This document shows, piece by piece, positions 16,436-40,441 of a stretch of DNA of 64,000 bases. Position 1 is the stretch's first letter. Each line of letters begins with the position of its first letter. The position numbers were made by a program, and so were the translations under genes. Where the stretch lies: NCBI GenBank assembly GCA_017548605.1, contig JAFYZT010000045.1:4332-68331 (forward strand). The letters are read 5' to 3'. The DNA is from Prevotella sp. (GTDB taxonomy: Bacteria; Bacteroidota; Bacteroidia; Bacteroidales; Bacteroidaceae). Under the pieces are notes generated by a model. The model saw only the letters and a program-made list of their open reading frames with translations, searched no databases and was not told where the DNA came from.

Positions 16436-16518
16436 ACTATTGTCGCTATAAATTCTATAGCCTCTATTAATTCTATAGCTTCTATTAATACTATAGTCAC
16501 TATAGCCCCTATAAATCC
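16436..16518. repeat. CTATA word array (period ~9)
   Basis: cactattgtcgctataaattctatagcctctattaattctatagcttctattaatactatagtcactatagcccctataaa. Confidence 0.8.
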
Positions 16519-16541
16519 TACCAATTACTTCATTCTTTCAA

Positions 16542-16913
16542 TCAGAACGGATGCATAGGGCGGCGTAAGGCGCGAGTGCGCTGGCGGTTGGCCTGTTCCT
16601 TTAGTTGGAGCAGCAGGGTTTCGCTGCGCTTCTCGTAGGAAGGGGCGGCTTCGGGGTTTACCGTGAGCAGCCATCGCCATACGATACGTTCGGTGAGAAA
16701 ATCGACGAGTGTGTCGCGTGAGGGGCACCAACGAAGCCAGGGTCGGGCCTCTTCGAGGGCACTCAGGTAATAACGGGTGAGCAGTTCGTCGTCGTACTCG
16801 TTGGTGGCTATTCGTTCATAATGGTCGGGTATGTCTGTCGTCTGACGGCTGCCCTGATACGCGGTGGTCATTGCCACCTGACGCATCACTCTTTCTTTCA
16901 ATGGGTTTTTCAT
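16542..16913 (-). CDS. hypothetical protein, last gene of the leftward phage-like operon (possible head-tail connector; weak)
   Basis: 123-aa ORF. Its ATG overlaps the stop of the 896-aa ORF (ATGA at 16910-16913). No recognisable motif. Confidence 0.55.
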   Translation of the reverse strand: MKNPLKERVMRQVAMTTAYQGSRQTTDIPDHYERIATNEYDDELLTRYYLSALEEARPWLRWCPSRDTLVDFLTERIVWRWLLTVNPEAAPSYEKRSETLLLQLKEQANRQRTRALRRPMHPF

Positions 16914-19600
16914 GGTTCAATATGGTATTTGCACCCTCCCTTTGGGAGGGCTGGGGTGTGTGTCCTAATTATCATATGGCTGATACGTTCGTCGCTTGCC
17001 ATCCATCCTGCTATGGCGATACGGTGCCATCGCCAGGGTGAGCCCGTCGGTAGTTGGAGAACAGGACAGCGGCTGCTGCCCAACAGGTGCCAGTGGAACT
17101 GGTCGTTACTGCCCCAGAGCATGAGGCAAATGAGCGGTTCCCTCCCCTCATGTCGCTTGCGGAACAGTCCGCATAGCTCCACTCGCCGCCACCGTTGCCA
17201 CTCATGGGTGGCAGTGCTGATCTGTCGGGTCAACGCCACGACGGGGATGCAGTCGGTTTCTTCAGCCCCATATTCCACCAATCCCCATTCGCCGCTATCG
17301 CTGTCGCAGGTGGCATGGAGCGTCTGCGTAGGGTCGATGATGCTTATCTGTCGCCGCTGCTTGTCGTAAATCAGGCGGCTGTTGCTGCTCCAGGAGAGCC
17401 GTCCACAGGGTAGGTGAGCAAACCGTTCGCCGAAGAGCGTGTTCATCATCATATCGAAATAGGGTAGGGTGGATGTGTCGAACAGTTCACCGCTCAAGGC
17501 ATCACCCATTCGTGAGAGAGTGCCTCCGTCAAGTCTGACCAGTCCCTGTTCACTGAGGTATGCCACATGGTCGTCGGTCTCGACAGGTTGGCCCGCCACG
17601 CATGGATAGCGGCTCACTTGGTACTTGTCCCGCCAAGCGATGCCGTCGCCACGCTGCAATGCCCACACACCGTCGCTGCAGAAAGCGTAGAGAGGGTATT
17701 GACCGAATTGTATGCCACCGTAGCGTTTCACACGTGACGTGAGGGCATTGATGGTGCCGTCGCCGATGGTTATTCGTCCCCTTGCGGGAAACACGAGCGG
17801 GTTATCGGCCACCGATGTGTACATCCTGTTGCTCCTCATTGCTGACGATGGCGTTTGTTGGGCCATGGCTTCGGCAGCCATCCATTCCTCGGCAGTCTCG
17901 CGAGTCCATAGGTCTGCCACGTCGTGCCATCGATGGTCGGTGGCGTCATATCTCATGCTCCGTGCTTGTTGGAGGATAAGACTGTGTACTGCCGCCCTGC
18001 CGCTGGCGTGACCGCCGCCGTTGCCGCTCCACAGTGCTATGGCCATGCCGCTTGTGCCCAGTGGGCGCAGACTCACGCTCTTTCTGTAGAAATGACTGCC
18101 TGAACTATCGGTGAAATGTAAGTGTAAGTCCATGGCGTATGCCCGTCGGTCAGGATAGGCCAGTATGCCTGGCAGCGGGTAACGCAGGTGGTCGATGAAG
18201 GCCCGTGTGCCGGCTGTGGTGCCCTCTCGCAGATGTACCACGCTCACCACGTCGGCCGGCAACCCTTCCTCCTGTTCGTCGATGTCGGGCCGTTCGCCGC
18301 ACAGACATTCCATCAGTCGGTCGTCGTCTGTGGTGCGTTCTTCACCGTCGAGGTTCCGAAACATATAGCTCACTGGTATGCTGAATGCACTGTTTTCTTT
18401 GGTGGTGATGGCAGCCGCGCAGAGGTGGCTGTCGAGGGTTCGCAGCACGCGGGCACCGAATGAGTGCCGGCGCATGTCACTGATGACGAGCGTGTCGCCG
18501 TCGCTGTTTCGGGGAATGACCACAGCCTGTCCGAAGTCGGTCAGGGCGATGTGCAGGGCATGCTGGAATGAGGTGCCCGCCAGACGTGTCGTGAGGGTGT
18601 TGGCATCGGCCCAGCTGTAACACAGGCGCGTGGCCATGCCCTCGCTGTCGGTGTCAATGGTTGTTGCGCCGCTCAGGTCGAGCATTGTCATTGGCGGGCT
18701 CTGGTAGATGTCAATGCCTTGCACCAGCTGTCTGGCCATCACCTCGTCGATGTCTTCCGCCAAACGAACCTTTATGGTGTGACTGTGCAGACTGGTGTTG
18801 GTGCAAAGCATCTTCTCATCGCCGTTACTTACCACAGTCAGTGTGGGCTCACCGTCGGCAGGTGCCAGGGCGAAGGGGTTGCTCATCAGTATCTGACTGC
18901 CGTCGAACAGGCGCAGTGTAGCGATGATGAACCGGATGTGTTTGTGCTCGTGGCTGCCGCCATGGCTCAGCTCGCGGTCGAGGATCTGTTCCATCCGCGC
19001 CAGGGCGAGCGAGGCACCTGTGGCCACGTCGTTGTTTCGCCACTCCGTGAACAGCTGTCTGAGCAGTGTGGCTTGTCCGTTCACCACCTCGTCGGCATGA
19101 AGCAGGTAGCGTTGCAGGGTGCTGTCAACGGGTGTGCGAAGCGTCACGCGACGTTGCATTCGCTGATCCACCTCTATGGTGTAACGAAGCGTCTCTTGCC
19201 GAAGGTGATGCCATGTGGCGTCGCTCTTGTCAAAGAAATGATACACCAGCCCATCATCGGAAGCAAAGACCAACAGTTCACCCATGGAACTGACTGCGTT
19301 GACTTTTTGGCCGTCGTCGTACCAGAAGGGATGTAGCGTGTCGCTGTCGGCGCTCCAATGATAGCTGTAACCATTGTCGTCATCGTAACGCTCGAAGATG
19401 TCGATACCTTGGTGGCGGATAATCCTGCGGTAAGCATGTCCGTCGGTATCAACACTCATTTCCGTGTCATGTTCGCTGATTTGTCGGGGATACCATTCTC
19501 CGGCATGGTTCACGAGGTTGATGGCGAGGCTCAGCTCGCCATCACATGCCTCGTGCTCCGAGGGCATGGTCTTCATGCCCTTCAATGTGATGTTTTTCAT
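16910..19600 (-). CDS. 896-aa orphan protein of the phage-like cluster (virion/tail component?)
   Basis: Long intact ORF, translationally coupled on its 3' side. No motif I recognise. The last ~15 codons (IRTHTPALPKGGCKYHIEP) are read from a REP-like unit at 16934-16962. Confidence 0.75.
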   Translation of the reverse strand: MKNITLKGMKTMPSEHEACDGELSLAINLVNHAGEWYPRQISEHDTEMSVDTDGHAYRRIIRHQGIDIFERYDDDNGYSYHWSADSDTLHPFWYDDGQKVNAVSSMGELLVFASDDGLVYHFFDKSDATWHHLRQETLRYTIEVDQRMQRRVTLRTPVDSTLQRYLLHADEVVNGQATLLRQLFTEWRNNDVATGASLALARMEQILDRELSHGGSHEHKHIRFIIATLRLFDGSQILMSNPFALAPADGEPTLTVVSNGDEKMLCTNTSLHSHTIKVRLAEDIDEVMARQLVQGIDIYQSPPMTMLDLSGATTIDTDSEGMATRLCYSWADANTLTTRLAGTSFQHALHIALTDFGQAVVIPRNSDGDTLVISDMRRHSFGARVLRTLDSHLCAAAITTKENSAFSIPVSYMFRNLDGEERTTDDDRLMECLCGERPDIDEQEEGLPADVVSVVHLREGTTAGTRAFIDHLRYPLPGILAYPDRRAYAMDLHLHFTDSSGSHFYRKSVSLRPLGTSGMAIALWSGNGGGHASGRAAVHSLILQQARSMRYDATDHRWHDVADLWTRETAEEWMAAEAMAQQTPSSAMRSNRMYTSVADNPLVFPARGRITIGDGTINALTSRVKRYGGIQFGQYPLYAFCSDGVWALQRGDGIAWRDKYQVSRYPCVAGQPVETDDHVAYLSEQGLVRLDGGTLSRMGDALSGELFDTSTLPYFDMMMNTLFGERFAHLPCGRLSWSSNSRLIYDKQRRQISIIDPTQTLHATCDSDSGEWGLVEYGAEETDCIPVVALTRQISTATHEWQRWRRVELCGLFRKRHEGREPLICLMLWGSNDQFHWHLLGSSRCPVLQLPTGSPWRWHRIAIAGWMASDERISHMIIRTHTPALPKGGCKYHIEP
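16934..16962 (+). repeat. REP-like unit inside the 3' end of ORF 16910-19600
   Basis: ccctccctttgggagggctggggtgtgtg. Confidence 0.8.
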
Positions 19601-19633: not shown

Positions 19634-20041
19634 TCATCTTTCTCTGCTCCCTCCCTTTGGGAGGGTCGGGGTGGGAATTATAATCACCATCGCCCGTCCG
19701 AGAGGTGTGTCGGTCACTTCGCCGCACATCACATGAGCCTGCTCTTGTTCACCTGTATGTCTCAGCACGAAACGGGTCAGTTTCTTGTTGTTTACACGCA
19801 GGTAACGGCTGCGCGGACCGTTCACGGCACGGCATGTGCCGGCATGTCGTCCGTTCAGTGCCCCTCCCGTATGTCGGGTGTATAGGTAATATTCCCGTTG
19901 GAATCCCTCTTCAACGGCGATGTCGATGACGTCGCCTGCCTTCAGGTCAAGTGCCTTGCTCACCCGTGCACAGATGTCGATATGTCCGTCGCGCCAGAAA
20001 GTGAGGTCGCTCTTCCGGCTGTTTTCCAGAACACTCTTCAT
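19634..20041 (-). CDS. hypothetical protein (phage-like operon)
   Basis: 135-aa ORF with an ATGA overlap to the upstream ORF at 20038-20041. The C-terminal IIIPTPTLPKGGSRER is encoded by REP unit 19649-19675. Confidence 0.55.
   Translation of the reverse strand: MKSVLENSRKSDLTFWRDGHIDICARVSKALDLKAGDVIDIAVEEGFQREYYLYTRHTGGALNGRHAGTCRAVNGPRSRYLRVNNKKLTRFVLRHTGEQEQAHVMCGEVTDTPLGRAMVIIIPTPTLPKGGSRER
19649..19675 (+). repeat. REP-like unit
   Basis: ccctccctttgggagggtcggggtggg. Confidence 0.85.
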
Positions 20042-20262
20042 GGTTGGCCAGTGATAGGGTGGTGGGTACGAAAGGTGATGGTGGTCACGTACATATAGGC
20101 ACGTGTCTGTTCTATGCGTTGGCGGTGAGCCATGGCAGAGCAGCGCGTGGGGTGTATCTGCGAGGCCAGGTCATACCTGTCGCTCCCGGCCTCGCCGATA
20201 ATCACCGCATAGTATTTGCGCCCGAACAGGCGCTCGGTTATCCTTCTTACAATCTTTTTCAT
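20038..20262 (-). CDS. small hypothetical protein (phage-like operon)
   Basis: Start chosen at Met 20262 (MKKIVRRITERLFGRKYYAVIIGEAG...). Stop overlaps the next start. Confidence 0.45.
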   Translation of the reverse strand: MKKIVRRITERLFGRKYYAVIIGEAGSDRYDLASQIHPTRCSAMAHRQRIEQTRAYMYVTTITFRTHHPITGQP

Positions 20263-20351: not shown

Positions 20352-20918
20352 TTACTTAAACGCATCCTGTAAGGCACGTTGCAACTCTTCCTTGGCCTTG
20401 TCCAGTTCACGTTTCATCGACTGTTTCAGCGTGTCGAGACCGGCCCTTAGTTCACCAGCTTTCACACCCAGACTGTCGGCGGTGCCACTGCCGATGCCAA
20501 GCTCGTTCATCAGGTCAACCATCGTATTGCCCAGCGTCTGTTCCAAATCAACGGTGGTGTTGCCCAACTGTTCTATCAGTCCACTGGCAGCCGACTTCAG
20601 GTAATTACCCAGGTCGCCCAGTTCACTGAAGGTGTCCTTAAACTTCGTCTTTGCCACGGTCATGGCGATGCGTTGTTTCAGGTCCGACACCGTTCGCTGC
20701 TCACTCTCCGTCAGGTCCAAGCCTTCCAGTTGGGCGCGGATGTCTTTATATTCCTGCTTCGACTTCTCCCATTGTTGTTGGTCGTAGTTCGGACCGTTGG
20801 TCTCCAGCTCATACGTGTACTTCTCCAGTTTCTCGATGGCGCGGCCTTTCTGGTCGCACGAGCCCAACAGGAACAGTCCCATCAGGGCCACCATCATCAT
20901 TGCCATTGTTTTTTTCAT
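20352..20918 (-). CDS. coiled-coil lipoprotein
   Basis: Lipobox signal MKKTMAMMMVALMGLFLLGSC followed by helical, charged repeats. Confidence 0.75.
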   Translation of the reverse strand: MKKTMAMMMVALMGLFLLGSCDQKGRAIEKLEKYTYELETNGPNYDQQQWEKSKQEYKDIRAQLEGLDLTESEQRTVSDLKQRIAMTVAKTKFKDTFSELGDLGNYLKSAASGLIEQLGNTTVDLEQTLGNTMVDLMNELGIGSGTADSLGVKAGELRAGLDTLKQSMKRELDKAKEELQRALQDAFK

Positions 20919-21027: not shown

Positions 21028-21807
21028 CTAATATCCTACCTCTTTAGGTTTTTTCTTGATAACATAGTAGAGGGCGCGGATATCGTCTTCGCGTAGGGTG
21101 AAATCATGGTATTCCGGCGAAGGGTTCAGCGAGTGGAACGTCAGCGTGCCTTCCTTCAAATCCTGTCCGATCATCTGTTTGATGAGAACCGACGACCCGA
21201 AGACAATCACCCAGTAGGGTCGAGCATGGTAACGGATGGGGTCGCGCCAGAACACTCGTTCCAGTTCGCGGCAGAGCACCCGGTCGCCCGATTCGAAACT
21301 GTCGCGACTACCCGTGTCCATGGAGTCACCCTTTACCTCGAAAGAGAGGTAATTGCCTCTTCCCACGCGGTCCACTTCGTAAGTCTCTTCGCTCCATTCA
21401 TCGAGGACGGGGTCCAGTCGGTCGGAGGGGTTGGCAAACTGACCGAAGCAGGCGTAGGGCACATGTTTCACCGACATGAGCAGTTGTTCGCCACGTTTGT
21501 ACAGCTTGGCTCCTTTCACCGTTTCGCCGAAGAACAATCCTTCCTGCTCTTCCACAGGTGTCACTTCATCGTGTTGCGATGGAACGAGCATTTCTCCCTG
21601 GCCGTTGACCAACCATTCACGGTTGATACGCGGATCCAGTTCGCACAGCTTGTTCACGAATCGGTTGCTCACGGGCACATGGCCATTCACAATCTGCGAA
21701 AACGACGACTCTTGGTAACCCAATCGGTTCGACAGCGCTTTCTGCGAATTGCCATACATCCCCTGCTGTAACAACCAGCGAACTAATATCTTTATATTTC
21801 CTAACAT
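21028..21807 (-). CDS. CI/LexA-like repressor (HTH domain plus S24 peptidase domain)
   Basis: The N-terminal SQKALSNRLGYQESSFSQIVNG looks like an XRE-type HTH. The C-terminus has VKGDSM...GDRV...LIKQM, the Ser/Lys dyad context of S24 autopeptidases. Divergent from the terminase gene. Confidence 0.8.
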   Translation of the reverse strand: MLGNIKILVRWLLQQGMYGNSQKALSNRLGYQESSFSQIVNGHVPVSNRFVNKLCELDPRINREWLVNGQGEMLVPSQHDEVTPVEEQEGLFFGETVKGAKLYKRGEQLLMSVKHVPYACFGQFANPSDRLDPVLDEWSEETYEVDRVGRGNYLSFEVKGDSMDTGSRDSFESGDRVLCRELERVFWRDPIRYHARPYWVIVFGSSVLIKQMIGQDLKEGTLTFHSLNPSPEYHDFTLREDDIRALYYVIKKKPKEVGY

Positions 21808-22323: not shown

Positions 22324-22368
22324 GTTAAACGGATGACAAAAAAGTTCGTGGAATTCATGTTATCTTCG
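22324..22368 (+). promoter_or_regulatory. conserved phage-module promoter, copy 1 (terminase)
   Basis: GTTAAACGGATGACA, then exactly 37 nt from its first base to TATCTTCG (-7 box). Same architecture as copies at 32445 and 35221. Confidence 0.7.
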
Positions 22369-22395
22369 CCGCCGAAAACAGGATAACACGATACC

Positions 22396-24483
22396 ATGAC
22401 CAACACACAAATCCAAGATATCCTCGACGAGAACCGTCGTAGGAACAACACACTGCGAGCACCTTTCGACCCGTTGACCGGTGAGGGGAGTACGGGACGC
22501 CGCATTGCCGTCACCCTCCGCGACGTGCGCGACACCCCCACCACCTTCTTCCTGCCCGAAAGGATGATGGACGACCCGCTGGCACGTGAGGCACAACGAC
22601 TCGGTTCCATAGAACGGGCTGCACGGCAGTTGCAGATGCCGCTCCTCGGGCTCTCCGATATGCGCGACGCGTTCCACCGCCTACGCTGCCGTCACGACTT
22701 CCCATATTGGGCTGCCTCGCACGTGCGCATCAAACCCAAACAGGGTGGCGACGACGTGCCCTTCGTGCTCAACAGACCGCAGCGCCGCTTGGTGGAAGCA
22801 TTCGAAGAGATGCGTCTTGCCGACATGCCCATACGCGTCATCGTGCTCAAGGCGCGACAGTGGGGTGGCTCCACCGTCACGCAGATATACATGGCGTGGC
22901 TCCAACTGATACAACGGACGGGTCTGAACTCACTCATCGTGGGACATGTGAAGACGGCCTCGGCAGAGGTCTGCGGCATGTTCGACAAACTGATGGAGGC
23001 CTATCCCGAGGCGATGCTCTACCCCCGGGATGCCCAGCCGCCGAAGGGGATGAAGAAAATGACCGGCGACCGAAACACACGGTTGCTACGCCATATCCCC
23101 TCGCGTAACTGCAAGATCAAGGTGGGCTCGGCGGAGACACCCGACTCAGCACGGGGCGGCGACTCGGCTCTCGTCCATTGCACGGAAGTGGCTTTCTGGC
23201 GTAAGACACAGAACAAACAGCCCGAAGACATCATCCGCTCGGCATGCTCCGGCGCGGGCTACCTGCCGGGGACGATGATTGTCTATGAATCGACGGCCAA
23301 CGGCACGGGCAACTTCTTCCATCGCGAATACGAGGCGGCGAAGAAAGGATACTCGCAGTTCCGGCCGCTCTTCGTGGCATGGTGGCAGATAGAGCAGTAT
23401 GCACTGCCCTTTGACACCGACGAACAATGCACAGCTTTCGCAACGGCACTCTATGAGGGGCGCGACAGCGACACGGCGGAGGAACGGTCGCTCTCTGGAC
23501 GCTGCCTCTGGCGGCTGTGGACCATGGGCGCTACGCTCGAGGCACTGCACTGGTACACCCTGGAGCGGCGCAAATACGTGGACCAGGCCGACCTCGCCGC
23601 CGAGTTTCCCTCCGACGACATCGAGGCGTTCAAACATTCCGGCGCCAATGTCTTCGACAGCCGTGAGGTGGAGCGTATGCGGCCGCAATGCCGCCAACCC
23701 ACCCTGCGCGGTGAGTTGCTCGCACGGGGTGAGCGTGGCAGTGAGGCGCTTGCCGACCTGCGTTTCCAACAGAGCGACTACGGCTTGTTGTGGCTGTGGC
23801 AGCCGCCGGAGAAGAACGGGGAGGGTAGGGTGACCAACCGTTACCTGGTGGTGGTGGACATCGGTGGCCGCTCCATGAAGAGCGACTGGTCGGTCATCGC
23901 CGTCTTCGACAGGATGCCGCTGGCCGCCGGTGGCGTGCCCTGTCTCTGTGCCCAGTGGTATGGCCATACCGACATGGACCGTCTGGCGTGGAAGGCGGCA
24001 CAGGTGGCACGTTACTACGACGATGCGCTGCTGGTCATTGAGTCGAACACGCTCGAGACACATGGTCCCACGGCCTTCGCTTTCGAGGGTGGCGACCAGA
24101 GCCTGTTCATCCTCAACGAGATACGCGAGGTGTACGACAACCTGTATGCCCGTCCGCAGAGTGCCGACGAGATACGGCAGCGCGCCCCCGTACGCTACGG
24201 CTTCCACACCAATGTGCGCACCAAACCAGCCATCATCTCGACGCTTATCGCCGTGGTTCGAGACGGTCTCTACGAAGAACGCGACGAGCGGTGTCTCAAC
24301 GAACTGCTTACCTATGAGCGACGACCCAACGGCTCCTATGGTGCCATCGACGGATGTAATGACGACCTGCTCATGACGCGGGCCATCGCCCTCCATCTCT
24401 CTTACCATGAATTGCCGCCGCCCCGCCTCGTTCCCCACAAACTAACTCGTCCCCACAGACCACAAATCTTTGTTGAACATTAG
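22396..24483 (+). CDS. phage terminase large subunit
   Basis: 695 aa. FVLNRPQRRLVEAFEE...VLKARQWGGSTVTQIYMAW is the Walker-A-like context of Terminase_6-type TerL, and the C-terminal half (VVVDIGG...DWSV, NDDLLM) is nuclease-like. Confidence 0.85.
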   Translation: MTNTQIQDILDENRRRNNTLRAPFDPLTGEGSTGRRIAVTLRDVRDTPTTFFLPERMMDDPLAREAQRLGSIERAARQLQMPLLGLSDMRDAFHRLRCRHDFPYWAASHVRIKPKQGGDDVPFVLNRPQRRLVEAFEEMRLADMPIRVIVLKARQWGGSTVTQIYMAWLQLIQRTGLNSLIVGHVKTASAEVCGMFDKLMEAYPEAMLYPRDAQPPKGMKKMTGDRNTRLLRHIPSRNCKIKVGSAETPDSARGGDSALVHCTEVAFWRKTQNKQPEDIIRSACSGAGYLPGTMIVYESTANGTGNFFHREYEAAKKGYSQFRPLFVAWWQIEQYALPFDTDEQCTAFATALYEGRDSDTAEERSLSGRCLWRLWTMGATLEALHWYTLERRKYVDQADLAAEFPSDDIEAFKHSGANVFDSREVERMRPQCRQPTLRGELLARGERGSEALADLRFQQSDYGLLWLWQPPEKNGEGRVTNRYLVVVDIGGRSMKSDWSVIAVFDRMPLAAGGVPCLCAQWYGHTDMDRLAWKAAQVARYYDDALLVIESNTLETHGPTAFAFEGGDQSLFILNEIREVYDNLYARPQSADEIRQRAPVRYGFHTNVRTKPAIISTLIAVVRDGLYEERDERCLNELLTYERRPNGSYGAIDGCNDDLLMTRAIALHLSYHELPPPRLVPHKLTRPHRPQIFVEH

Positions 24484-24545: not shown

Positions 24546-24560
24546 TTGTATATCTTTTTT

Positions 24561-27483: not shown

Positions 27484-27489
27484 CATTGT

Positions 27490-32444: not shown

Positions 32445-32489
32445 GTTAAATGGATGACACACTTTTCACGGGAAAAGACAATATCTTTG
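32445..32489 (+). promoter_or_regulatory. conserved phage-module promoter, copy 2 (scaffold-like gene)
   Basis: GTTAAATGGATGACA, with 37 nt to TATCTTTG. Confidence 0.7.
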
Positions 32490-32510
32490 CCACGAACAAA
32501 ACCAATAACC

Positions 32511-33143
32511 ATGAAAACAATAACACAACAAACTGAACAACAGAGCCTTGACAATCTCAAGGAACAGGTAATGAACCGGATAACATCACGTCATCCCCAA
32601 CTTGACTCAGCCGATGAAAAAGCACTTTTCCAAGCCGTTTACGACGATTACGACGAAAACGACGTTTTGCAGGAACTCTACGATGAACTGGTGGAAAAGA
32701 TGGAGGCGATGACCACCGCCAAAAAGAAAGAAGAGGCCGAGTACGAAAGCAATCTCGACCAGACCATCGTCGCCATCGAGCAGATGAAACAAGAGGAGTC
32801 AGCCGATGGTGAGCGCATTGACGAGGCGGTGGCGTGGTTGCAGAAGGTGGGCGATGAGGTGGCCCGGGGACGGTTGCTCCCTGATGACATCCGGATGGTG
32901 ATGAAAGGAGCGGCTTACGATGTCGATGTGGCCGCCGCCGACCATGATGGAGAGGTGCGCGGACGCAACTACGTCATCGAAGAACACCTGCGTACTGCTA
33001 AGGATACGCCCGCCGACGTGCCAGCCCTGCGCGGCACGGGCGGTATGAACACCACCCAAGCGCTTCCTCGCGAAGTCCTCGGTGCTTTGGTAGGCACCAC
33101 CCGTCCCACTATCTGGGAACGGGGAAAAGAAAAGAGGTATTAA
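32511..33143 (+). CDS. acidic coiled-coil protein, scaffold-like (tentative)
   Basis: Start set at ATG 32511, downstream of the -7 box at 32482-32489. 210 aa, very acidic and helical. Its position between portal and capsid genes fits a scaffolding protein. Confidence 0.55.
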   Translation: MKTITQQTEQQSLDNLKEQVMNRITSRHPQLDSADEKALFQAVYDDYDENDVLQELYDELVEKMEAMTTAKKKEEAEYESNLDQTIVAIEQMKQEESADGERIDEAVAWLQKVGDEVARGRLLPDDIRMVMKGAAYDVDVAAADHDGEVRGRNYVIEEHLRTAKDTPADVPALRGTGGMNTTQALPREVLGALVGTTRPTIWERGKEKRY

Positions 33144-33270: not shown

Positions 33271-33362
33271 AATTCATCACTCACCACTCAACATTCACCA
33301 CTCAACATTCACCACTCAACATTCAACATTCAACACTCAACATTCAACATTCACCACTCATC
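33271..33362. repeat. heptamer word array (cattcac/cactcaa/cattcaa)
   Basis: About 12 consecutive 7-nt words. Related arrays at 30247-30300, 36816-36858 and 37990-38040. Confidence 0.8.
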
Positions 33363-34783
33363 TTCCTATACAGTCGGCTTTTCGTGCTTCGTAGTGCTTG
33401 GTTGGAGCAGCAGAACGCCTGCGCCTTGCGATTGTCATCGATGTCATAATGGTCCATCACCACGTAGAACGTCTCTTTGGGTGTCAGCGGTGTTGAGGCA
33501 TGCGCCAACTCTTCGTAGAGCGGTTTGTTGATGGCTGGCAACACCTTCAGCAGTGCCGTCTCTTCCCGCTTGCCGAATTGGCTGATGTTATCGCCGCTGA
33601 CCAAGGCGTTGAGCACGTCGATACCCTCTTTCGTCTCCGTCACCGAGGTGAGCAAACGCTCTACTTCCCTCCTTTGGTTGGCGGAGGCGAATTGCGTGAG
33701 TTGGCGTTGCATGTGTTGCAACTCTTCCACACGGCTGTCCACGGTCTGCTTCAACTCGCTGATGGTCTGCTCTTTCTGTCCGAGTAGCGAGCGCACCTCG
33801 TGCAGCGTGTCGTTGAAGCGGAGCTTCAGCGACCGTTGCTTCCTGTCGAACCACCAGGTGATGGCGAGCACCAGGGCGAGCAGTGCCACGAGAGCCACGA
33901 CGAACCACAGCCGTTGCCGTTCCTTCTCCAGTGTCAGCAACTCACGGTCGTAGCGGTTTTGCAGGTCCACCATCTCCACGTTCTGTTGGCTGATGGCTAC
34001 CGAGTCATCGATAGCCTTCCATTGTTTGTAGGCCTCAAGAGCCCCACGGAAGTCGCCTTTCCTTTCGAGATATTCACTGCGCAGGAGGTAACGGTTGCGG
34101 CGGAGGGTGGAACCGCCGTCAGTGGCCAACGTGTTCATGATGATTTCCGCCTGGTCGTCGCGCCCTTGTTTGATATACACCATGCAGAGCAGCGACAGCG
34201 CATTGCCCATGGCTGAGGAGTCCTGTGCGAGGAGTGCCGCCCGATAGGCATGGTTCTCCGCTTCAGGCAGTGAGTCGGTGAGCATCTCGTAGTAAGCAAT
34301 ATTTTTCATGATGCACGACCGCTGGCTGTCGTCGGCCTCTTTGTAGAGCGCTGCCGCCCTAAGGTTGACGCGCCATGCCGAGTCGTTGAGCTGTAGGTTG
34401 TAGAGGGTGTTGGCCTGATTGATGAGCACATCGACCACCAGCTCCGGACGTTGCGTCTTTTCCGCAAAGCCAAGGGCTTTCTCCTGATAGTCGAGGGCGC
34501 GTGAGTAGGCTCCGCTATGTTCGTTCACCCATCCTATGTATTGGCAAATCTGGTATTTCTGCTTGTCGTCGTCGAGCTGTGGCAGCAGCTCCTCGGCACG
34601 CTTCAGCTGAAGCATGGCCTCGGAATATTCGCCACGGTCGATGAGCAGCACCGCACTGTCGAGACGTACCTCGGCCTGTGCCTGCGGTGAAGCAGGCGAC
34701 GATCCGTCACGGCACGAGGAGAGGACACAGAGTGCCACGCCGGCTATCATCAATACCATCTTTCTATACATACTGCTATACAT
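33344..34783 (-). CDS. TPR-repeat membrane protein with coiled-coil and C-terminal HTH-like region
   Basis: Signal/lipobox-like N-terminus (LSSC), TPR units, a TM helix (LWFVVALVALLALVLAITWWF) and a C-terminal segment resembling LuxR-type tails. The start may be 34771 or 34759 because a -7 box (34788-34796) abuts 34783. Confidence 0.75.
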   Translation of the reverse strand: MYSSMYRKMVLMIAGVALCVLSSCRDGSSPASPQAQAEVRLDSAVLLIDRGEYSEAMLQLKRAEELLPQLDDDKQKYQICQYIGWVNEHSGAYSRALDYQEKALGFAEKTQRPELVVDVLINQANTLYNLQLNDSAWRVNLRAAALYKEADDSQRSCIMKNIAYYEMLTDSLPEAENHAYRAALLAQDSSAMGNALSLLCMVYIKQGRDDQAEIIMNTLATDGGSTLRRNRYLLRSEYLERKGDFRGALEAYKQWKAIDDSVAISQQNVEMVDLQNRYDRELLTLEKERQRLWFVVALVALLALVLAITWWFDRKQRSLKLRFNDTLHEVRSLLGQKEQTISELKQTVDSRVEELQHMQRQLTQFASANQRREVERLLTSVTETKEGIDVLNALVSGDNISQFGKREETALLKVLPAINKPLYEELAHASTPLTPKETFYVVMDHYDIDDNRKAQAFCCSNQALRSTKSRLYRKMSGEC

Positions 34784-35220: not shown

Positions 35221-35265
35221 GTTAAACGGATGACAAAAAAATTCTGGAAAAGAGCCTTATCTTTG
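35221..35265 (+). promoter_or_regulatory. conserved phage-module promoter, copy 3 (capsid gene)
   Basis: GTTAAACGGATGACAAAAAAATTC, with 37 nt to TATCTTTG. 20 of the first 24 nt are identical to copy 1. Confidence 0.7.
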
Positions 35266-35336
35266 CCCCCGTTATCGGATAACATTCAATCAAAACCATC
35301 AAAAACACATTTAATCATTTAACACCAACACACATC

Positions 35337-36686
35337 ATGGCAACAGAAAACAATCTCTATCAGGGTGGTGCGGAGAAATACAAGGGGACGACAGAACCCA
35401 ACCCCCTCAATCCGCAATTCACCGACAATCCCGATGGTATCCTCACCGAGACCGTGGCACGCGAAATCGCTGATCCGGAGATGTACCAGAAAGACATCGA
35501 CGAGCGCATCACCAAAATCCGTCCCATGGCGACACCCGTCGACCAGATATCACGCTTCGCCACGCTTCAACAGGCATCATCGTTCGAAGTGAAGTACTAC
35601 AGCGTTGGCACCCGTCCGGTCATGACGACTCTCACAACAGCTGTCACGGCGAGTGCTTCGGCCACCAGCGTGCCTCTCGAGGTGGCCGACCCTGACATGT
35701 TCACGCTCGACGATACCATCCGCGTGGTGGGTGTCAAGGCCATCACCGACTTTCGTGGCACCGCCTACAGCAACAACGACCCCACGACACCCGACCTCTG
35801 CCTGTGCGTCTGTGGAAAGACGTCGCAGGGCCAGCCCATCGTCTTCGCTGTCAACGGCAATGTGGTGAACCGACAGAACATTGGCGTACCCAGCATAGCG
35901 GCAGGCACCAAACTTATCCGCATGGGAAAGAGCTGCGGCGAGCTTGACGTACAGACGGGACGATTCAATAACCTGCCCACCTCGGAGCTGCAGTATTGCC
36001 AGAACTTCATGGCGCAGATAGAGCAGTCGACGCTTGACAAGATAGCCAATAAAGAGGTGAACTGGGGCTTCTCCGACCTGGAGGAAGACTCCATCTACGA
36101 CATGCGACTGGCGATGGAAAATTCCTTCCTCTTCGGTGACATGAACATGGTGAAGCACACTACCAAGGACGGCATGGCGCAGTGGTTCACCAAAGGCATC
36201 TGGTGGCAGGCAGGCAAGGACATCGAGGTGGGCACGACCGTCAATGGTGTGACGACCATCACCGACAATGACCTCGTTGACATCTCACGCGACCTGTTCG
36301 TGGGCACGGGCATCGGCAACAAACGCAAGGTGTTGCTCTGTGGCAGCGACTTCCTCGCCGCACTGTCGAAGATTGATTCCGACAAGTTCCGCCTGAAAGA
36401 TACCGTGGAGGTGTGGAACCTGAAGTTCAAGAGCTGGGAGACCGACTTTGGCGAGATTCTGGCGATGCACGATGAGCTGTTCGATATGAACGGCATGGCC
36501 GACTGTGCCTTCGCCCTCGACCCGGAGTTCCTGACGAAAAAGACGCACCTGAGCTGGAGCCGTAACATCCTCGACCTGAAGAAGGCGGGAGTGCGTAACA
36601 CCGACGCCGTGGTCATCCAGGAAATCAGCTGCCTCTACCTCCGCTATGCCAAGGCCCATGCCCGCCTGCGCCTCGCAGAGGAATAA
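35337..36686 (+). CDS. HK97-fold-like phage major capsid protein (tentative)
   Basis: 449 aa. The N-terminal DIDERITKIRPMATPVDQISR segment and the overall pattern resemble major capsid proteins of the SU10/DUF5309 type as I remember them. Carries the conserved promoter module upstream. Confidence 0.65.
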   Translation: MATENNLYQGGAEKYKGTTEPNPLNPQFTDNPDGILTETVAREIADPEMYQKDIDERITKIRPMATPVDQISRFATLQQASSFEVKYYSVGTRPVMTTLTTAVTASASATSVPLEVADPDMFTLDDTIRVVGVKAITDFRGTAYSNNDPTTPDLCLCVCGKTSQGQPIVFAVNGNVVNRQNIGVPSIAAGTKLIRMGKSCGELDVQTGRFNNLPTSELQYCQNFMAQIEQSTLDKIANKEVNWGFSDLEEDSIYDMRLAMENSFLFGDMNMVKHTTKDGMAQWFTKGIWWQAGKDIEVGTTVNGVTTITDNDLVDISRDLFVGTGIGNKRKVLLCGSDFLAALSKIDSDKFRLKDTVEVWNLKFKSWETDFGEILAMHDELFDMNGMADCAFALDPEFLTKKTHLSWSRNILDLKKAGVRNTDAVVIQEISCLYLRYAKAHARLRLAEE

Positions 36687-36862: not shown

Positions 36863-37078
36863 ATGAAAACTTATATTGCCAAATCCCATATCTGCATCAA
36901 TGTGATGATGCCCGAGGGCGTACGTCACGTCAGGTTCATTCCCTGTACCCTCGGCAACAGCTACCTCATGACCGACGACCCCATCCTCCAGATGGCCCTC
37001 GAATCGCATCCTCGCTACGGAACACTATTTATTGAAAACCCACCCCGTCCCTCCCCAAGGGAGGGTGTTCTTAGATGA
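36863..37078 (+). CDS. small hypothetical protein downstream of capsid gene
   Basis: 71-aa ORF. The last ~13 codons (ENPPRPSPREGVLR) are read from REP unit 37038-37065. Confidence 0.45.
   Translation: MKTYIAKSHICINVMMPEGVRHVRFIPCTLGNSYLMTDDPILQMALESHPRYGTLFIENPPRPSPREGVLR
37038..37065 (-). repeat. REP-like unit inside the 3' end of ORF 36863-37078
   Basis: acccaccccgtccctccccaagggaggg. Confidence 0.85.
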
Positions 37079-37938
37079 CTTTCTTGAGTTTCAAATATAT
37101 ACACATTATTTCCTCCATGTCTATAACTTCCTCTAATCCAATTCCCACACCCACTCCTCCAACTCCCTCCCTTTGGGAGGGCCGGGGTGGGTATTCACCA
37201 TCCTCTCTTTCCACTCCCTCCCTTCGGGAGGGCCGGGGTGGGTATCCCACTCCCTCCCTTCGGGATGGTCAGGGTGGGTATCCCACTCCCTCCCTTTGGG
37301 AGGGTAGGGGTGGGTATGTTCCTTTAAATGTCATTTTCCACGACGTGCGTGTGGCCCTCAACATGAACCATGCCTGTCAGGCGCTTATCGACGAGGACAA
37401 CATCGATACGCTCACGCTCAACGAGCTGATACGCAACCAGATAGAGCCTGTGGCCGCCGAGGTGGTGAAAGCCGCTCTTTTGCTTGATCTTGGCGAGGGA
37501 AAACCTTTCGGTGGTGACATTCTCTGGGACGAGGTGCCAGGCCATGGCTCAGGCTCAGTGATTCTACCTCCCGACTTCCTTCGTCTGGTCTTGTTCCGTA
37601 TGTCGGGTTGGCGGCAGGCAGCCACGCTCATCGATGCCGCTTCGCCACGCGCCATGTGGCAGCGGTCACCTTTTCCCGGTGTTCATGGCAACCCGTGCCG
37701 TCCCGTGGCATTCATCAGTCCTTCTTCATTCGGCAACCAGTTGCATTTCTTCGCCTCCGCCGACGGCTACCATGCCCAAATCGTCGAGGCACGTTACATC
37801 CCCGTCCCGTGTCTCCAGTCCCTCGACAGCACCGATAACCCCTCGCCGGAGCAATGGCTCTCCCTGCCCCCGCGCCTCTATCATCCTTTCATCCAGGCCC
37901 TCGCCGAACGAGTTCAACTTATCATTCAAAACAACTAA
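37075..37938 (+). CDS. head-tail adaptor-like protein (tentative); first ~96 codons are REP units, so the real start may be 37363
   Basis: Codons 20-80 translate four tandem REP units (PSLWEGRGGY x4). The unique part starts near MNHACQALIDEDNIDTLTLNELIRNQIEPVAAEVVKAA. Confidence 0.55.
   Translation: MTFLSFKYIHIISSMSITSSNPIPTPTPPTPSLWEGRGGYSPSSLSTPSLREGRGGYPTPSLRDGQGGYPTPSLWEGRGGYVPLNVIFHDVRVALNMNHACQALIDEDNIDTLTLNELIRNQIEPVAAEVVKAALLLDLGEGKPFGGDILWDEVPGHGSGSVILPPDFLRLVLFRMSGWRQAATLIDAASPRAMWQRSPFPGVHGNPCRPVAFISPSSFGNQLHFFASADGYHAQIVEARYIPVPCLQSLDSTDNPSPEQWLSLPPRLYHPFIQALAERVQLIIQNN
37160..37316 (+). repeat. four tandem REP-like units (in frame with ORF 37075-37938)
   Basis: 4x c(t/a)ctccctccct(t/c)(t/c)gggagggccggggtgggta, with the third copy degenerate. 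Confidence 0.85.
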
Positions 37939-38090: not shown

Positions 38091-40337
38091 ATGAAAAACC
38101 ATTCTTTCAACCACAAGTCTATCTACGCCCCTCCCTCGGGAGGGGATGGGAGAGGGGCTCTCTTTCCCGGAGGGGATGGGAGAGGGGCTCTCTTTACCGA
38201 CCTCCATGTCGGTGGACAGCTCACTGCACACCACGACCTCAACGTCCTCGGCAATGTGCATATCTCTGGCGCACTCTCCTGTGCGCAAGTCAATAACCTC
38301 GATGCCGGTTTCTTCGTGTCTGAACAGGCATTGCTCACGGCTCATCCTCTGCCAACGGTGGGCATGCATGCCACGGTGTTTCATGAGGAAGCAGGCCAGC
38401 CCGTCACAGCCACCATCTATGGCTGTGAGCAGGCGGGACAATGGCGAGCCCTGGCCGCACAGGTGCCCGTGACTGTCAGCTGGCAACGGTCATCCTTGCC
38501 AGATCCTGCCTACAGCATACCCTTCTCACATTTCGTCGTCCTTGACAGCATCGACAGCCTGCCGCCTGTTCCCCGTGACACGATGACGGGCTTTGTCGTC
38601 GATGGTATCATCTATGTCTTCGTGGCCAAGGGAGGCGACACGAAGGGCGGCCGTTACCTGGCCTGCGGCCCTTTGCACGGCATACAAGGTGAACAGGGTC
38701 CGCAGGGCGGTCAGGGTCCCGTGGGACCGCAGGGACCTGCCGGGCCGCAGGGCATCCAGGGCAATACGGGTGTCTCCATCGGCGACAACTATGAACTGTT
38801 CTCCACCCTTCAGGCTCTCGATGGCAAGACCACCGGACAGAAAGCCGCTATGATACCCGACGGCAACGTGGTGGAGGAGACAAACTATATCGTTGATGAC
38901 CTCGCGGCGAAAAAAGCCTACACCAACCGCATCATCGATGCCAGCGGAGCATCCGTCCAGCCACCTTCGGGCAACGGCAACCGACAAGTGGTCATCTTCG
39001 ACATTGCACAGTATGTGGGCTACACCATCGCTTTCGCTTCCTACAACAACTACGCGGGAGCCTATTCATGGGCGGTGTACCGGGGCGACACCACCATATC
39101 GCTCACAGGACTGTCGCTGAACACCGACGTGCGTGTGATGTCGGCTGCCACCACAGCCAGGGGCAGCTATATGGACAGTATCACCGTGGAACAAGGCGAC
39201 AGGTATCTCGCCCTGGTGTGCTACAACGGACATACTGCAACGGCGAAGACGACGAAGAGCGTGAAGACCATCCTCCTCGAAGACTCAACGCGGCTGGGAG
39301 CGGTGGAGAACAGGCTCGATAGCATCGAGACACAGGGACTGAACACCATCGGTCCCCTCAATGCCGACCGCGACAGTATGGTGGCGAACCTCGGCTACAC
39401 CGCTTCTACGCTGCGCCTGCTCCATTTCTCCGACCTGCACTATGACCCGGCGAACATGCAGCGTATCATGGACTGGAGAAACGCTCACGCCGATGACATC
39501 GACGACATCCTCAATACGGGCGATACGGTGAACAGCCGCTACGGTACGGCATTGGGCTATGGTAATGTGGAAGAGGTGGAGCGCATCCTCAACACCATCG
39601 GTAACCACGACATCGACGATACAGGAGACGGCTCCTATATCCATTCGGGTGTGGATGGCTATAATACCTACCTCAAACCGTTCATCAACAACTGGGACGT
39701 GACACAGCCCGACAATGCCGAGGCTGGCGGTAAGTGCTACTATTCTAAGGACTATGTGGCGAAGGGCATACGGCTCGTCGTGCTCGACACCATCGTGGCA
39801 TATTCCAGCGGCAGCGCGCAACAGACATGGTTCCGCCAGGTGCTTGCCGACGCTCGGACACAGGGTCTCGCGGTCGTTGTGGCCTGTCATTGGCTCAAAG
39901 GCGACCGCATAACCATACCTAACCACTTCGCACCGTGGCGTGACACATGGGCCGACTTCGAGGGGAAGGGCAGTGCGGGCAGTGCCGTGGTGTGTACCGA
40001 CGTACAGACGTTCATCAACGATGGCGGTGAGTTCATCTGCTATCTCGTCGGACATAGCCATGCCGACCATATCGGAACGATGAAGATTCATCCGCAGCAG
40101 CTGTGCATCGCCGTGGGAGCGGCCAACGGACTGCCACCCACCAATATCTATCATGTCAATCACGGTGGCGAGGTACGCCGACAGGGAACGCGCTCGCAGG
40201 ACAACTTCAACATCATCGGCATCAACACCTCTTCGCACACCATCACCCTCGTCAAGATTGGCATCGACAGCACCATCTATGCCCAGCACAAAGACTTCAT
40301 CCGCATCAATTATCTTTCAATGTTAGTGGAAGAGTAG
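38091..40337 (+). CDS. tail-fibre-like protein: collagen-type GXY repeats plus C-terminal calcineurin-like metallophosphoesterase domain
   Basis: Start set at Met 38091. Has GIQGEQGPQGGQGPVGPQGPAGPQGIQGNTG and phosphoesterase motifs LLHFSDLHYD, NTGDTVN, IGNHD and VGHSHADH. Codons 12-34 are read from duplicated REP-like units. Confidence 0.8.
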   Translation: MKNHSFNHKSIYAPPSGGDGRGALFPGGDGRGALFTDLHVGGQLTAHHDLNVLGNVHISGALSCAQVNNLDAGFFVSEQALLTAHPLPTVGMHATVFHEEAGQPVTATIYGCEQAGQWRALAAQVPVTVSWQRSSLPDPAYSIPFSHFVVLDSIDSLPPVPRDTMTGFVVDGIIYVFVAKGGDTKGGRYLACGPLHGIQGEQGPQGGQGPVGPQGPAGPQGIQGNTGVSIGDNYELFSTLQALDGKTTGQKAAMIPDGNVVEETNYIVDDLAAKKAYTNRIIDASGASVQPPSGNGNRQVVIFDIAQYVGYTIAFASYNNYAGAYSWAVYRGDTTISLTGLSLNTDVRVMSAATTARGSYMDSITVEQGDRYLALVCYNGHTATAKTTKSVKTILLEDSTRLGAVENRLDSIETQGLNTIGPLNADRDSMVANLGYTASTLRLLHFSDLHYDPANMQRIMDWRNAHADDIDDILNTGDTVNSRYGTALGYGNVEEVERILNTIGNHDIDDTGDGSYIHSGVDGYNTYLKPFINNWDVTQPDNAEAGGKCYYSKDYVAKGIRLVVLDTIVAYSSGSAQQTWFRQVLADARTQGLAVVVACHWLKGDRITIPNHFAPWRDTWADFEGKGSAGSAVVCTDVQTFINDGGEFICYLVGHSHADHIGTMKIHPQQLCIAVGAANGLPPTNIYHVNHGGEVRRQGTRSQDNFNIIGINTSSHTITLVKIGIDSTIYAQHKDFIRINYLSMLVEE
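38128..38195 (+). repeat. duplicated REP-like variant inside the 5' end of the fibre gene
   Basis: cccctccctcgggaggggatgggagaggggctctcttt + cccggaggggatgggagaggggctctcttt. Confidence 0.75.
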
Positions 40338-40341
40338 ATGT

Positions 40342-40441
40342 GGAGTTAAGAAGTTAAAGAAGTTAAGAAGTTAAGCCATTACCTTGCAATATATTCAGTT
40401 GTTCTTCTGAACCAAAGTAATACGGCTTTACTCCTTAACTT
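40342..40441. repeat. TTAAC-word/hairpin element (MITE-like)
   Basis: ggagttaagaagttaaagaagttaagaagttaagccattacc...ttcagttgttcttctgaacc...gtaatacggctttactccttaacttc. The terminal arms are inverted repeats. Confidence 0.75.

Follow-up and report, generated by a model that had tools for sequence, protein, structure and literature searches.

The stretch analysed here, which we call the window, comprises 64,000 nt of Prevotella sp. (assembly GCA_017548605.1, contig JAFYZT010000045.1, positions 4,332-68,331 of the forward strand; coordinates below count from position 1 of the window), and it contains an island of about 24 kb (16.5-40.4 kb) of phage morphogenesis genes interleaved with host-type genes. 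On balance, we favor the reading that its gene content reflects the domesticated remnant of a phage similar to the temperate Bacteroides phage BKO1-TP3, kept by the host as a particle-building set that would constitute a "viriform" resembling gene transfer agents (GTAs). The island retains the large terminase (TerL), portal, scaffold-like protein, major capsid protein (MCP), two small capsid-adjacent proteins, the small protein c2, a nozzle-like tail protein, and a fibre, while functions for integration, replication, and lysis and the giant polyvalent internal protein have been lost from the locus. Through several speciation events it has passed down with the chromosome, and purifying selection acts on each of its genes.

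A TerL scan over one genome per species of the Genome Taxonomy Database (GTDB) returned 40 loci, mostly from metagenome-assembled genomes (MAGs) of rumen Prevotellaceae; loci of relatives are cited here by our own numbers. In at least four species-level genomes the locus adjoins a common set of host genes. The window shares its left junction and gene order with L003 (TerL 94% identical) and L004 (87%): an AMP-ligase and a DUF3256 gene are followed by p123, p896, p135, p74, p188, the CI-type repressor, TerL, portal, and the FHA gene and those beyond it. The same junction, gene order, and orientation are found in L215 and L216, the two ends of one 45.8-kb metagenomic contig (MCP 95%, TerL 89% identical), where about 22 kb of host-type genes stand between CI and TerL, namely TruA, DHDPS, an AraC regulator, DUF2461, and a CoA ligase, then TonB_C and an FGE-sulfatase. 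In the window 0.6 kb separates CI from TerL; L003 has 3.2 kb between them and L004 has 2.4 kb, part of which is an FGE-sulfatase gene. TerL adjoins an FGE-sulfatase gene in L004, L005, L007, L008, and L216, and in L005, L007, and L008 (TerL 81-66% identical) the TerL-portal pair follows both an FGE-sulfatase and a GH36 alpha-galactosidase. The idea that the left arm stands alone in L214/L215 was rejected on finding the c2 homologue P0281 on the same 45.8-kb contig; the arm is separated there by host genes, not lost. An identical DUF3256 protein occurs on 5 contigs, all of which carry the island, an identical MCP occurs on 8 contigs of different samples, and the long contigs with this MCP all show the island in the same context.

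Selection was assessed by the Nei-Gojobori method in four species-level genomes, as synonymous divergence (dS) and the ratio of nonsynonymous to synonymous divergence (dN/dS). About 20 island genes are intact in these genomes, and every island gene has a dN/dS of 0.015-0.31 at a dS of 0.4-1.5 or more, well below 1 as an earlier note on this DNA had proposed to check. No orthologue has an internal stop; that note had described the structural open reading frames (ORFs) as long and uninterrupted. The host AMP-ligase gene has a dS of 0.47-0.96 and a dN/dS of 0.008-0.07. Since island dS is near that of the host gene, the site is fixed, and host genes stand inside the locus, inheritance with the chromosome is favored over repeated integration. 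GC content at third codon positions is 0.67 in the island and 0.64 in host genes, and codon usage correlates with that of the host at r=0.90, compared with 0.95 between the two host flanks. From DUF3256 to p135 (15590-20041), dS is 0.8-2.0 between the window and L003/L004 and 0.56-1.4 between L003 and L004 (p123 1.4), whereas the window's TerL is closest to that of L003 (dS 0.39). The locus seems to contain a recombination breakpoint, and because the host DUF3256 gene shows the same pattern, the divergence of the left part can be ascribed to ordinary chromosomal recombination.

Searches of Pfam and PHROGs with the ORFs in the island, in the 16 kb to its left, and in the 23 kb to its right gave no match to an integrase, transposase, holin, or endolysin family or to one for replication, ARAGORN detects no tRNA gene in the full 64 kb, and no att-like direct repeats were found flanking the island. 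The absence of integrase, replication, and lysis genes, of a flanking tRNA, and of clean direct repeats, all remarked on before from the sequence, holds across island and flanks, and no such prophage genes were recognized just outside the island. Nor were integrase, att, replication, or lysis functions found at the same site in the relatives, within the stretches available. The only long repeat pair, 26501-26577 and 40366-40442, was tried as an att pair and rejected, as each copy follows an operon end; it looks like a repeated terminator or an element of the repetitive extragenic palindromic type.

What remains derives, as its genes indicate, from a temperate short-tailed Bacteroidales phage like BKO1-TP3, of a podovirus-like type with genomes of 55-68 kb. 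The sole cultured relatives are the temperate Bacteroides phages BKO1-TP3, BS-TP4, and BF1-TP2 (PQ571269, PQ571277, and PQ571263; 64-68 kb; Liu et al. 2025, PMC12694917), to which the island has identities of 46-67% in MCP, about 50-54% in TerL, and about 50% in portal. Its genes include the structural module of BKO1-TP3-like podoviruses, that is, TerL, portal, SU10-type MCP, scaffold, c2, p287, and a 900-aa protein. The morphogenesis genes common to BKO1-TP3 and BF1-TP2 that have been kept are, in BKO1-TP3 numbering, gp34 (nozzle-like), gp45, gp47 (MCP), gp48 (scaffold-like), gp49 (c2), gp51 (TerL), and gp54 (portal); the island also keeps gp46, gp31, and gp33, which are not in BF1-TP2, gp46 being shared with the phage L131. 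Without island counterpart are gp35/36/38, gp52, gp55, and the giant protein. Phages of this type share with the island the scaffold-like protein, c2, p287, p71, a nozzle-like protein of 880-900 aa, and the gp31/gp33 homologues, and BF1-TP2 has the same succession of TerL and portal on one strand. In contrast to the island, they carry an integrase, recombination and replication genes, methyltransferases, an endolysin, and giant proteins of 2600-5500 aa (in the 65-kb BKO1-TP3, which also has a repressor, these measure 2638 and 5553 aa), and 2 of the 3, BKO1-TP3 and BS-TP4, have a diversity-generating retroelement, with a reverse transcriptase gene in BKO1-TP3. The 80 IMG/VR loci retrieved with the portal are all 49-52% identical to it and carry TerL, MCP, scaffold, p71, p287, and c2; the window-type portal itself is not in IMG/VR, where its best match is 52%. 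Unlike these phage loci, the island adds a CI/S24 repressor, a lipoprotein, and Sel1, FHA, PP2C, and TPR genes.

TerL (22396..24483, plus strand) is full length (phrog_2 E=1.8e-20), and every residue that does not vary among 37 homologues is preserved in it, K152ARQWGGST160 included. Over 685 aa its identity to BKO1-TP3 gp51 is 54%; its dS is 0.39-0.93 and its dN/dS 0.09-0.11. In GenBank, gp51 (PQ571269, L001 37872-39986) is labelled a "tail spike protein," as is BF1-TP2 gp60 (PQ571263, L217 40117-42144), and both are TerL homologues. The portal gene (24880..26466, plus strand; P22_portal E=4.6e-15, phrog_156 E=7.8e-45; dS 0.69-0.92, dN/dS about 0.1) encodes a protein that lacks some 38 N-terminal aa of its phage homologues and whose alignment to BKO1-TP3 gp54 stops at residue 534 of 656; portals have 470-560 aa in all chromosomal relatives versus 650-700 aa in phages. 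Its N-terminal region contains an in-frame 84-nt tandem duplication (25111-25258, repeat D19). The c2 gene (32012..32416, minus strand) encodes an all-helical protein of 134 aa with two repeats (phrog_27246 E=3e-30), whose homologue stands directly upstream of TerL in phages and is present in 63 of the 80 phage loci. No function for c2 emerged from Pfam, PHROGs, or a fold search of the PDB, in which its AlphaFold2 (AF2) model, with a predicted local distance difference test score (pLDDT) of 88, had no match at E<0.8; candidate roles are small terminase and late regulator. The scaffold-like gene (32511..33143, plus strand; phrog_22323 E=9e-27) encodes an acidic, helical homologue of BKO1-TP3 gp48, the gene for which lies directly 5' of that phage's MCP gene.

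The MCP (35337..36686, plus strand) is an HK97-fold protein of the SU10 type (SU10_MCP E=1.7e-32, phrog_26635 E=5e-210), 67% identical to that of BKO1-TP3 and, between window and L216, constrained to a dN/dS of 0.047 at a dS of 0.69. The reading of the locus as a row of TerL, portal, scaffold-like, HK97-like capsid, small ORFs, and fibre had been made from the letters alone, and PHROGs and Pfam matches support it for TerL, portal, scaffold, and capsid. Downstream, p71 (36863..37078, plus strand; phrog_23743, dN/dS 0.17) corresponds to the N-terminal domain alone of an MCP-adjacent phage protein of 125-170 aa, the linker and C-terminal domain being missing in both the window and L216. The p287 core of about 190 aa (37363..37938, plus strand; phrog_22135), preceded by a 36-nt hairpin repeat array, has homologues in 57 of the 80 phage loci and is a candidate head-completion or adaptor protein, although profile searches of p287 and p71 against PDB sequences gave no match for such a role. 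The real starts of p287 and the fibre are likely at 37363 and 38091, since the longer ORFs traverse repeat arrays. The fibre (38091..40337, plus strand) consists of an N-terminal region, a short collagen repeat, through which alone its Collagen and PHROG tail-fibre matches come, and a C-terminus in which the full motif set of calcineurin-like phosphoesterases can be read (DxH, GD, GNHD, GHxH), which suggests an enzymatic tip. It has 748 aa in most conspecific contigs and 613 aa in one (L043 13196-15037), and the 613-aa variant has a weak Metallophos match.

Tail components are also encoded in the left arm. The 896-aa protein p896 (16910..19600, minus strand; phrog_32516 E=3e-34) had been taken for an orphan, which it is not: a profile of close homologues gathers 3813 representatives of 50%-identity clusters, nearly all of 850-1000 aa, and its predicted fold is like that of podovirus tail proteins. 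Its AF2 model is beta-rich, with a pLDDT of 75-85 across residues 50-400. In a search of the PDB, the model matched best to a chain of 910 residues from the virion of phage SU10 (E=1e-6, probability 0.85); next came a chain from the portal-tail complex of a cyanophage and numerous beta-propellers. A nozzle protein of SU10 is described as having platform, seven-bladed beta-propeller, and nozzle domains (PMC9509320). Against the predicted viral structures of BFVD, Podoviridae proteins match at E=6e-33 and a template modelling (TM) score of 0.45, and the matches also include a crAss-like "stabilization protein" and a "tail tubular protein B." A profile search against PDB sequences gave no match, so that fold comparison alone was informative. 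Homologues are gp34 of BKO1-TP3 and gp33 of BF1-TP2, and in the true phage contig L131 the homologue stands between a 4881-aa polyvalent protein and TerL. With moderate confidence, p896 is probably a podovirus tail nozzle or a component like tubular protein B (dS 0.56-1.45, dN/dS 0.17-0.31); if so, the locus does encode tail parts. The earlier note's failure to find a tail tube, sheath, or tape measure is what a short-tailed, podovirus-like ancestor would lead one to expect; a nozzle-like tail protein and a fibre are present nonetheless.

Around p896 lies a leftward operon whose ATGA overlaps, seen before, are 4-nt overlaps at 20038-20041 and 16910-16913. It ends with p123 (16542..16913, minus strand; weak matches to phrog_35482 and phrog_19255), whose start overlaps the stop of p896 by 4 nt and whose orthologues in L003, L004, L214, and L215 give a dN/dS of 0.10-0.21. 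Upstream of p896 are p135 (19634..20041, minus strand; dN/dS 0.06-0.19), 37% identical by tblastn to BKO1-TP3 gp33, which its depositors annotated as AbrB/MazE/SpoVT-like, and a 74-aa protein (p74; 20038..20262, minus strand, from the ATG at 20262 within the p91 ORF; phrog_30965 E=1e-12), a homologue by tblastn of BKO1-TP3 gp31 that is called at the same length in conspecific contigs. Next comes p188 (20352..20918, minus strand), a predicted lipoprotein with a signal peptide ending in Cys and an apolipoprotein-like helical body (weak Pfam Apolipoprotein match; dN/dS 0.015-0.10), of which no homologue was found in the 80 phage loci. The CI/LexA-type repressor (21028..21807, minus strand; dS 0.70-1.3, dN/dS 0.04-0.08), already recognized as divergent from TerL, has an N-terminal helix-turn-helix (HTH) and an S24 domain, matching phrog_4 at E=1.7e-14 and Pfam HTH_31 and Peptidase_S24 below their gathering scores, and motifs for self-cleavage can be read in it, the serine of GDSM and a downstream lysine in LIKQ.

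The middle of the island holds genes of host type, which had been noticed as interleaved Sel1, FHA/PP2C, and TPR genes; Pfam confirms their presence, with the correction that the Sel1 gene is on the minus strand (26619..27446; Sel1 E=3.7e-57). This gene is variable, being absent in L216, and the plus-strand ORF at 26637-27524 was rejected as its antisense shadow. On the plus strand follow an FHA protein with a transmembrane segment and a C-terminal zinc ribbon (FHA237, 27594..28307; FHA E=5.7e-11), which is among the most constrained island genes (dS 0.51-1.39; dN/dS 0.025-0.035 against the window and 0.097 between L003 and L004); p375 (28516..29643; dN/dS 0.06-0.07), a membrane-anchored protein with a duplicated domain of about 75 aa (internal repeat D11) and no match in Pfam, PHROG, or PADLOC; a zinc-ribbon and FHA protein (29708..30211; FHA E=4.7e-8; dN/dS 0.08); and an Stp1-type PP2C Ser/Thr phosphatase with a transmembrane segment and a Pro/Thr-rich tail (30306..31718; PP2C_2 E=2.6e-13; NCBIfam Stp1_PP2C_phos E=3.9e-44, below cutoff). 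By sequence these four are membrane-associated, and they stay linked to TerL-portal even where the block is inverted (L009); no kinase partner for them is encoded in the window. Divergent from the capsid operon is a membrane TPR protein (33344..34783, minus strand; dN/dS 0.10) with weak TPR matches in Pfam, a DUF6377 match, and an NCBIfam BT3442_fam match below cutoff (E=2e-11), a candidate sensor or regulator. As a group, the FHA, PP2C, and TPR genes rank with the most constrained of the locus. The 80 IMG/VR phage loci contain no homologue of CI, p188, p123, Sel1, either FHA protein, p375, PP2C, or the TPR protein. PADLOC defence models give weak partial matches only (PP2C to PDC-M21C at 7e-8, and TPR repeats), and NCBIfam has no equivalog among the island proteins.

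Regulation appears to tie the structural genes together. A shared promoter module, GTTAAAYGGATGACA-N24-TATCTT(T/C)GCC, precedes the TerL (22324..22374), scaffold (32445..32495), and MCP (35221..35271) genes, all on the plus strand, and so serves the operons TerL-portal, scaffold, and MCP-fibre; that three operons have one promoter module had been seen before, and it is conserved across species, being kept in L003, L005, and L216 while the intergenic DNA around it is not. The copy before TerL reads GTTAAACGGATGACA, 24 nt, and the -7 box TATCTTCG, followed by GATAAC boxes. The -7 box is of the Bacteroidetes TAnnTTTG type, and the GATAAC boxes lie near the start site. Beyond the window's clade, the module was seen only in L005 and one phage-like locus, L032, under the patterns used. 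The CI and FHA promoters have a standard -33/-7 appearance, and the sigma-A-type promoter of CI with its adjacent AAATATAAA repeats is nearly identical in 5 genomes. From these features, the structural genes would have a dedicated activator or sigma-type factor, for which c2 and the membrane TPR protein are candidates, and CI self-cleavage would supply an SOS-type input.

Repeats had been described as filling the intergenic gaps, and short tandem repeats and GC-rich hairpins do occupy gaps throughout the island, at about 7-fold the density of the host flanks (about 35 versus 7 rows from Tandem Repeats Finder; 12 versus 2 hairpins). Tandem arrays with 7-9-nt units (TTTTAATC, CTTAACTY, CACTCRT, and others) and CCCTCCC-N3-GGGAGGG hairpins occur on both sides of genes over 16428-41046, and such arrays or hairpins also occur in the flanks, at 388, 10602, 51052, 51123, and 59595; relatives have arrays at the same positions with other unit sequences. 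A family of 93/96-nt repeats with the core CGGCAATTCACGTAA is confined to two places, the TerL-portal gap, where about 2 copies of a 93-nt unit lie at 24543..24766, and the right edge of the island (40366..40864), where a 77-nt copy of the post-portal element (26501-26577) is followed by 4.3 copies of a related 96-nt unit (40447-40864). Its copy number varies among conspecific contigs, and it is absent or single-copy in L003, L004, and L216.

If the island is a host-kept particle-building set, a plausible course of events would begin with an SOS-type signal and cleavage of the CI/LexA-like repressor. The three structural operons would be co-activated through their common promoter module, by c2 or the membrane TPR protein, while the membrane FHA-FHA-PP2C phospho-signalling module, recruited from the host, would gate or localize assembly. 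Procapsids would form on the portal with the scaffold, and TerL would pack the heads with DNA cut in situ from the chromosome, since the locus cannot excise or replicate. Nozzle and fibre would complete the short tail, and release would depend on lysis functions encoded elsewhere.

Several observations weigh against this reading. Particles, packaging, and transfer are deduced from genes, and neither the locus nor the window contains a holin or endolysin recognizable in Pfam or PHROGs. Ejection or needle proteins cannot be identified, and the locus has no counterpart of the giant internal protein encoded by related phages. There is no identifiable small terminase, c2, which occupies the phage TerS position, being without a structural match, and the nozzle assignment of p896 depends on a model with an overall pLDDT of 56. 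The portal lacks its C-terminal 120 aa or so, and p71 is a single domain, so that the particle may be incomplete or altered; as these shortened forms are conserved rather than random, they could reflect either adaptation or an incomplete particle. Because the MCP is near the capsid proteins of phages of about 65 kb, the head may have room for more than the 24-kb locus, in which it would differ from the heads of classical GTAs; in L215/L216, the island halves span more than 45 kb. The CI orthologue of the metagenomic contig L215 (7736-8508) appears split into ORFs of 197 and 75 aa by either a frameshift or an assembly error. The host dS baseline is one partial gene of 108-269 codons. Lastly, 80 metagenome loci with an AMP-ligase 81-87% identical to that of the window have DUF3256 but no island. 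For the suggested comparison of synteny, the position is the same in L003, L004, and L215/216, these 80 more distant loci are without island, a wide conservation at the AMP-ligase/DUF3256 site is rejected, and the island there is confined to a narrow clade.

The same conservation evidence would apply equally if the module had been domesticated for something other than transfer, such as interference with BKO1-TP3-like phages (by capsid, portal, or terminase subunits that act as decoys or poison assembly, or by hijacking phage assembly), a killer or bacteriocin-like particle, or DNA release, with the FHA/PP2C module as a sensor of infection or envelope stress. The truncated portal and p71 and the missing lysis and ejection proteins mean that a particle may be non-infectious, the locus contains a phospho-signalling module that is itself among its most constrained parts, and related complete phages circulate in the same bacterial order. 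However, no gene matches a known PADLOC defence family, TerL keeps all its invariant residues, as expected for DNA packaging, and a full set of head, nozzle, and fibre seems more than interference needs; we regard such a function as unlikely, though it deserves to be taken seriously. Less probable still is a helper-dependent, satellite-like island with its own capsid and short tail that spreads horizontally, a co-resident or infecting BKO1-TP3-like helper supplying replication, lysis, and internal proteins. What the island lacks (lysis, replication, and the giant internal protein) is precisely what such a related helper would have, a CI-type repressor is present, and satellites that form their own capsids are already known, namely the capsid-forming phage-inducible chromosomal islands (cf-PICIs), but no integrase, excisionase, primase/replicase, or att repeats were found, the island stands at the same chromosomal site with dS matching the host gene, it is split by about 22 kb of host genes in L215/L216, its codon usage is host-like, and it is not among IMG/VR viral contigs.

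The earlier note had left a choice between an old, decaying cryptic prophage and a retained, host-regulated locus. The first, in the form of an ordinary prophage under neutral decay that looks intact because it is young, would account for the lack of integrase, replication, and lysis genes, for the abundance of repeats, and for the shortened p71 and portal. Yet it is contradicted by some 20 ORFs intact in four species-level genomes at host-like dS and low dN/dS, by conserved regulatory motifs, and by truncations that are themselves conserved between species; decay can be rejected because an unconstrained 700-codon ORF would not survive such divergence, and we give it almost no credence. The second has gained from the common site across species, the host insert, the host-like codons, and the FHA/PP2C/TPR genes.

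The history of domestication can be approached through the terminases. In a neighbor-joining tree of 64 TerLs, those embedded in Prevotellaceae chromosomes fall without exception into one clade (50/50 bootstraps), which is sister to the true phage L131 and nested within the phage/provirus radiation. The tree is consistent with one ancient capture and later rearrangement and dispersal, and the dispersed modules of island relatives resemble the organization of the RcGTA "genome," which is multilocus (PMC5026251).

Two kinds of dispersed relatives were observed. A second, paralogous TerL locus (about 60% identical to the window's) is present in L011-L019, L021, L023, L025, and L031 (GTDB Prevotellaceae), with a scaffold-like gene, c2, a rhomboid-like gene, and a beta-helix protein; in at least 10 species-level genomes it stands between host P-type ATPase/SerB-like/DUF4236 genes and ClpB, and most copies are without a portal or capsid gene within 10 kb. 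Its TerL has a dN/dS of 0.09-0.23 and a dS that tracks that of ClpB, and in the MAG RGIG7584 the two types of locus coexist (L008, L014). Host genes likewise surround capsid modules that have 78-84% identity to the window's MCP, at L129 10001-16643, at L132 4757-12639, and in L133. In L129, between dockerin/LRR (leucine-rich repeat) genes and CutC, the MCP is accompanied by two small proteins and a fibre, with an M15 peptidase adjoining the fibre gene; in L132/133 the order is RuvX, Def, a TPR protein, MCP, a 197-aa protein, and the fibre.

A bolder version of the domestication reading, which we put forward tentatively as somewhat unlikely, is that an old, single-origin domesticated podovirus is spread through rumen Prevotellaceae as the first GTA-type system of the Bacteroidota, under the control of a LexA-like repressor and an FHA-PP2C phospho-switch acting by way of a common late-type promoter, and with in situ packaging. 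Its modules (nozzle arm, TerL-portal, capsid-fibre) would be contiguous as here or split and dispersed by host genes, phage-sized heads filled with neighboring chromosome would make it a host-owned lateral-transduction machine, and the TerL and scaffold locus beside ClpB would belong to the same or a sister system.

Both flanks are ordinary Bacteroidales chromosome. On the left stand an aminotransferase, a TonB-dependent receptor, a BspA-type LRR protein, an M6 peptidase/DUF4465 protein, and a ferredoxin-type protein, and, at the junction, the host AMP-forming ligase (14265-15593) and DUF3256 protein (15590-16243). A small RNA of the Bacteroidetes FopS family (16311-16381, plus strand; Rfam RF04319, 72.6 bits against a gathering score of 56) sits exactly on the left border, between DUF3256 and p123. 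On the right, an AraC-type regulator (41048-42241) is followed by large CARDB and DUF4465 surface proteins, a STAND-like ATPase, and a TonB receptor. Two large DUF4465 surface proteins bracket the island (10636-13380 and 52850-58429), each near TonB-receptor genes, one with an M6 peptidase domain and the other with BNR and beta-helix domains. The low-GC segment 40900-46300 (0.41-0.46) contains the AraC-type regulator and two proteins without family match, one of which has a third-position GC content of 0.37 and a C-terminal tail common to secreted proteins in L129; this segment may be a separate acquisition abutting the island.

GTAs are known in few lineages, mostly Alphaproteobacteria, with further examples in Brachyspira, Desulfovibrio, Methanococcus, and recently Faecalibacterium. 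Bacteroidales have very high rates of gene exchange in gut ecosystems, and Prevotellaceae are the dominant rumen bacteria. The island is a candidate for the first GTA-like system in the Bacteroidota; the earlier note knew of none described in Prevotellaceae, and in the literature searched we found none reported for the phylum. If the reading is right, it would represent an independent, podovirus-derived domestication event in Prevotellaceae and a concrete candidate mechanism of chromosomal gene flow in the rumen, with particle production tied to Ser/Thr phospho-signalling in a way unreported for GTAs. Such loci are easily labelled "incomplete prophages" in MAG surveys, which inflates estimates of lysogeny. 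The same site in related species, host-equal dS, low dN/dS, and host genes between modules offer a signature that distinguishes domesticated from decaying loci.

Among known systems, a functional temperate prophage or a cf-PICI would have an integrase, replication genes, and att sites, and the prophage also a lysis cassette, none of which was found in the island. cf-PICIs and other satellites are otherwise like the island in being compact and in having their own terminase, portal, capsid, head-completion genes, and repressor; in contrast to it, they move between genomes, while the island co-diverges with the chromosome and encodes a nozzle-like protein and a fibre. PBSX of Bacillus subtilis is likewise a chromosomal, phage-like set incapable of self-propagation, SOS-inducible as the island may be, but it is myovirus-like and unrelated in sequence and has lysis genes of its own. 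Particles have been demonstrated experimentally for PBSX, and those of classical GTAs take up more or less random host DNA in a head too small for the GTA genes, whereas particles of the island are predicted from its genes. The island also differs from described GTAs in lacking any sequence relationship to them, in its phylum, in having no identified lysis cassette, and in the FHA/PP2C module inside the cluster. Like them (RcGTA of Rhodobacter, BaGTA, VSH-1, Dd1, and FpGTA, the last, from Faecalibacterium, being podovirus-like; PMC12946183), it has phage-derived head, tail, and packaging genes, with no match to an integration or replication family in island and flanks, and is chromosomal, with host-type regulators. 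Its vertical inheritance and purifying selection, seen in a narrow clade and against one partial host gene as baseline, are equally features of GTAs, and in RcGTA (PMC5026251), as among the island's relatives, the parts are separated by host genes or dispersed.

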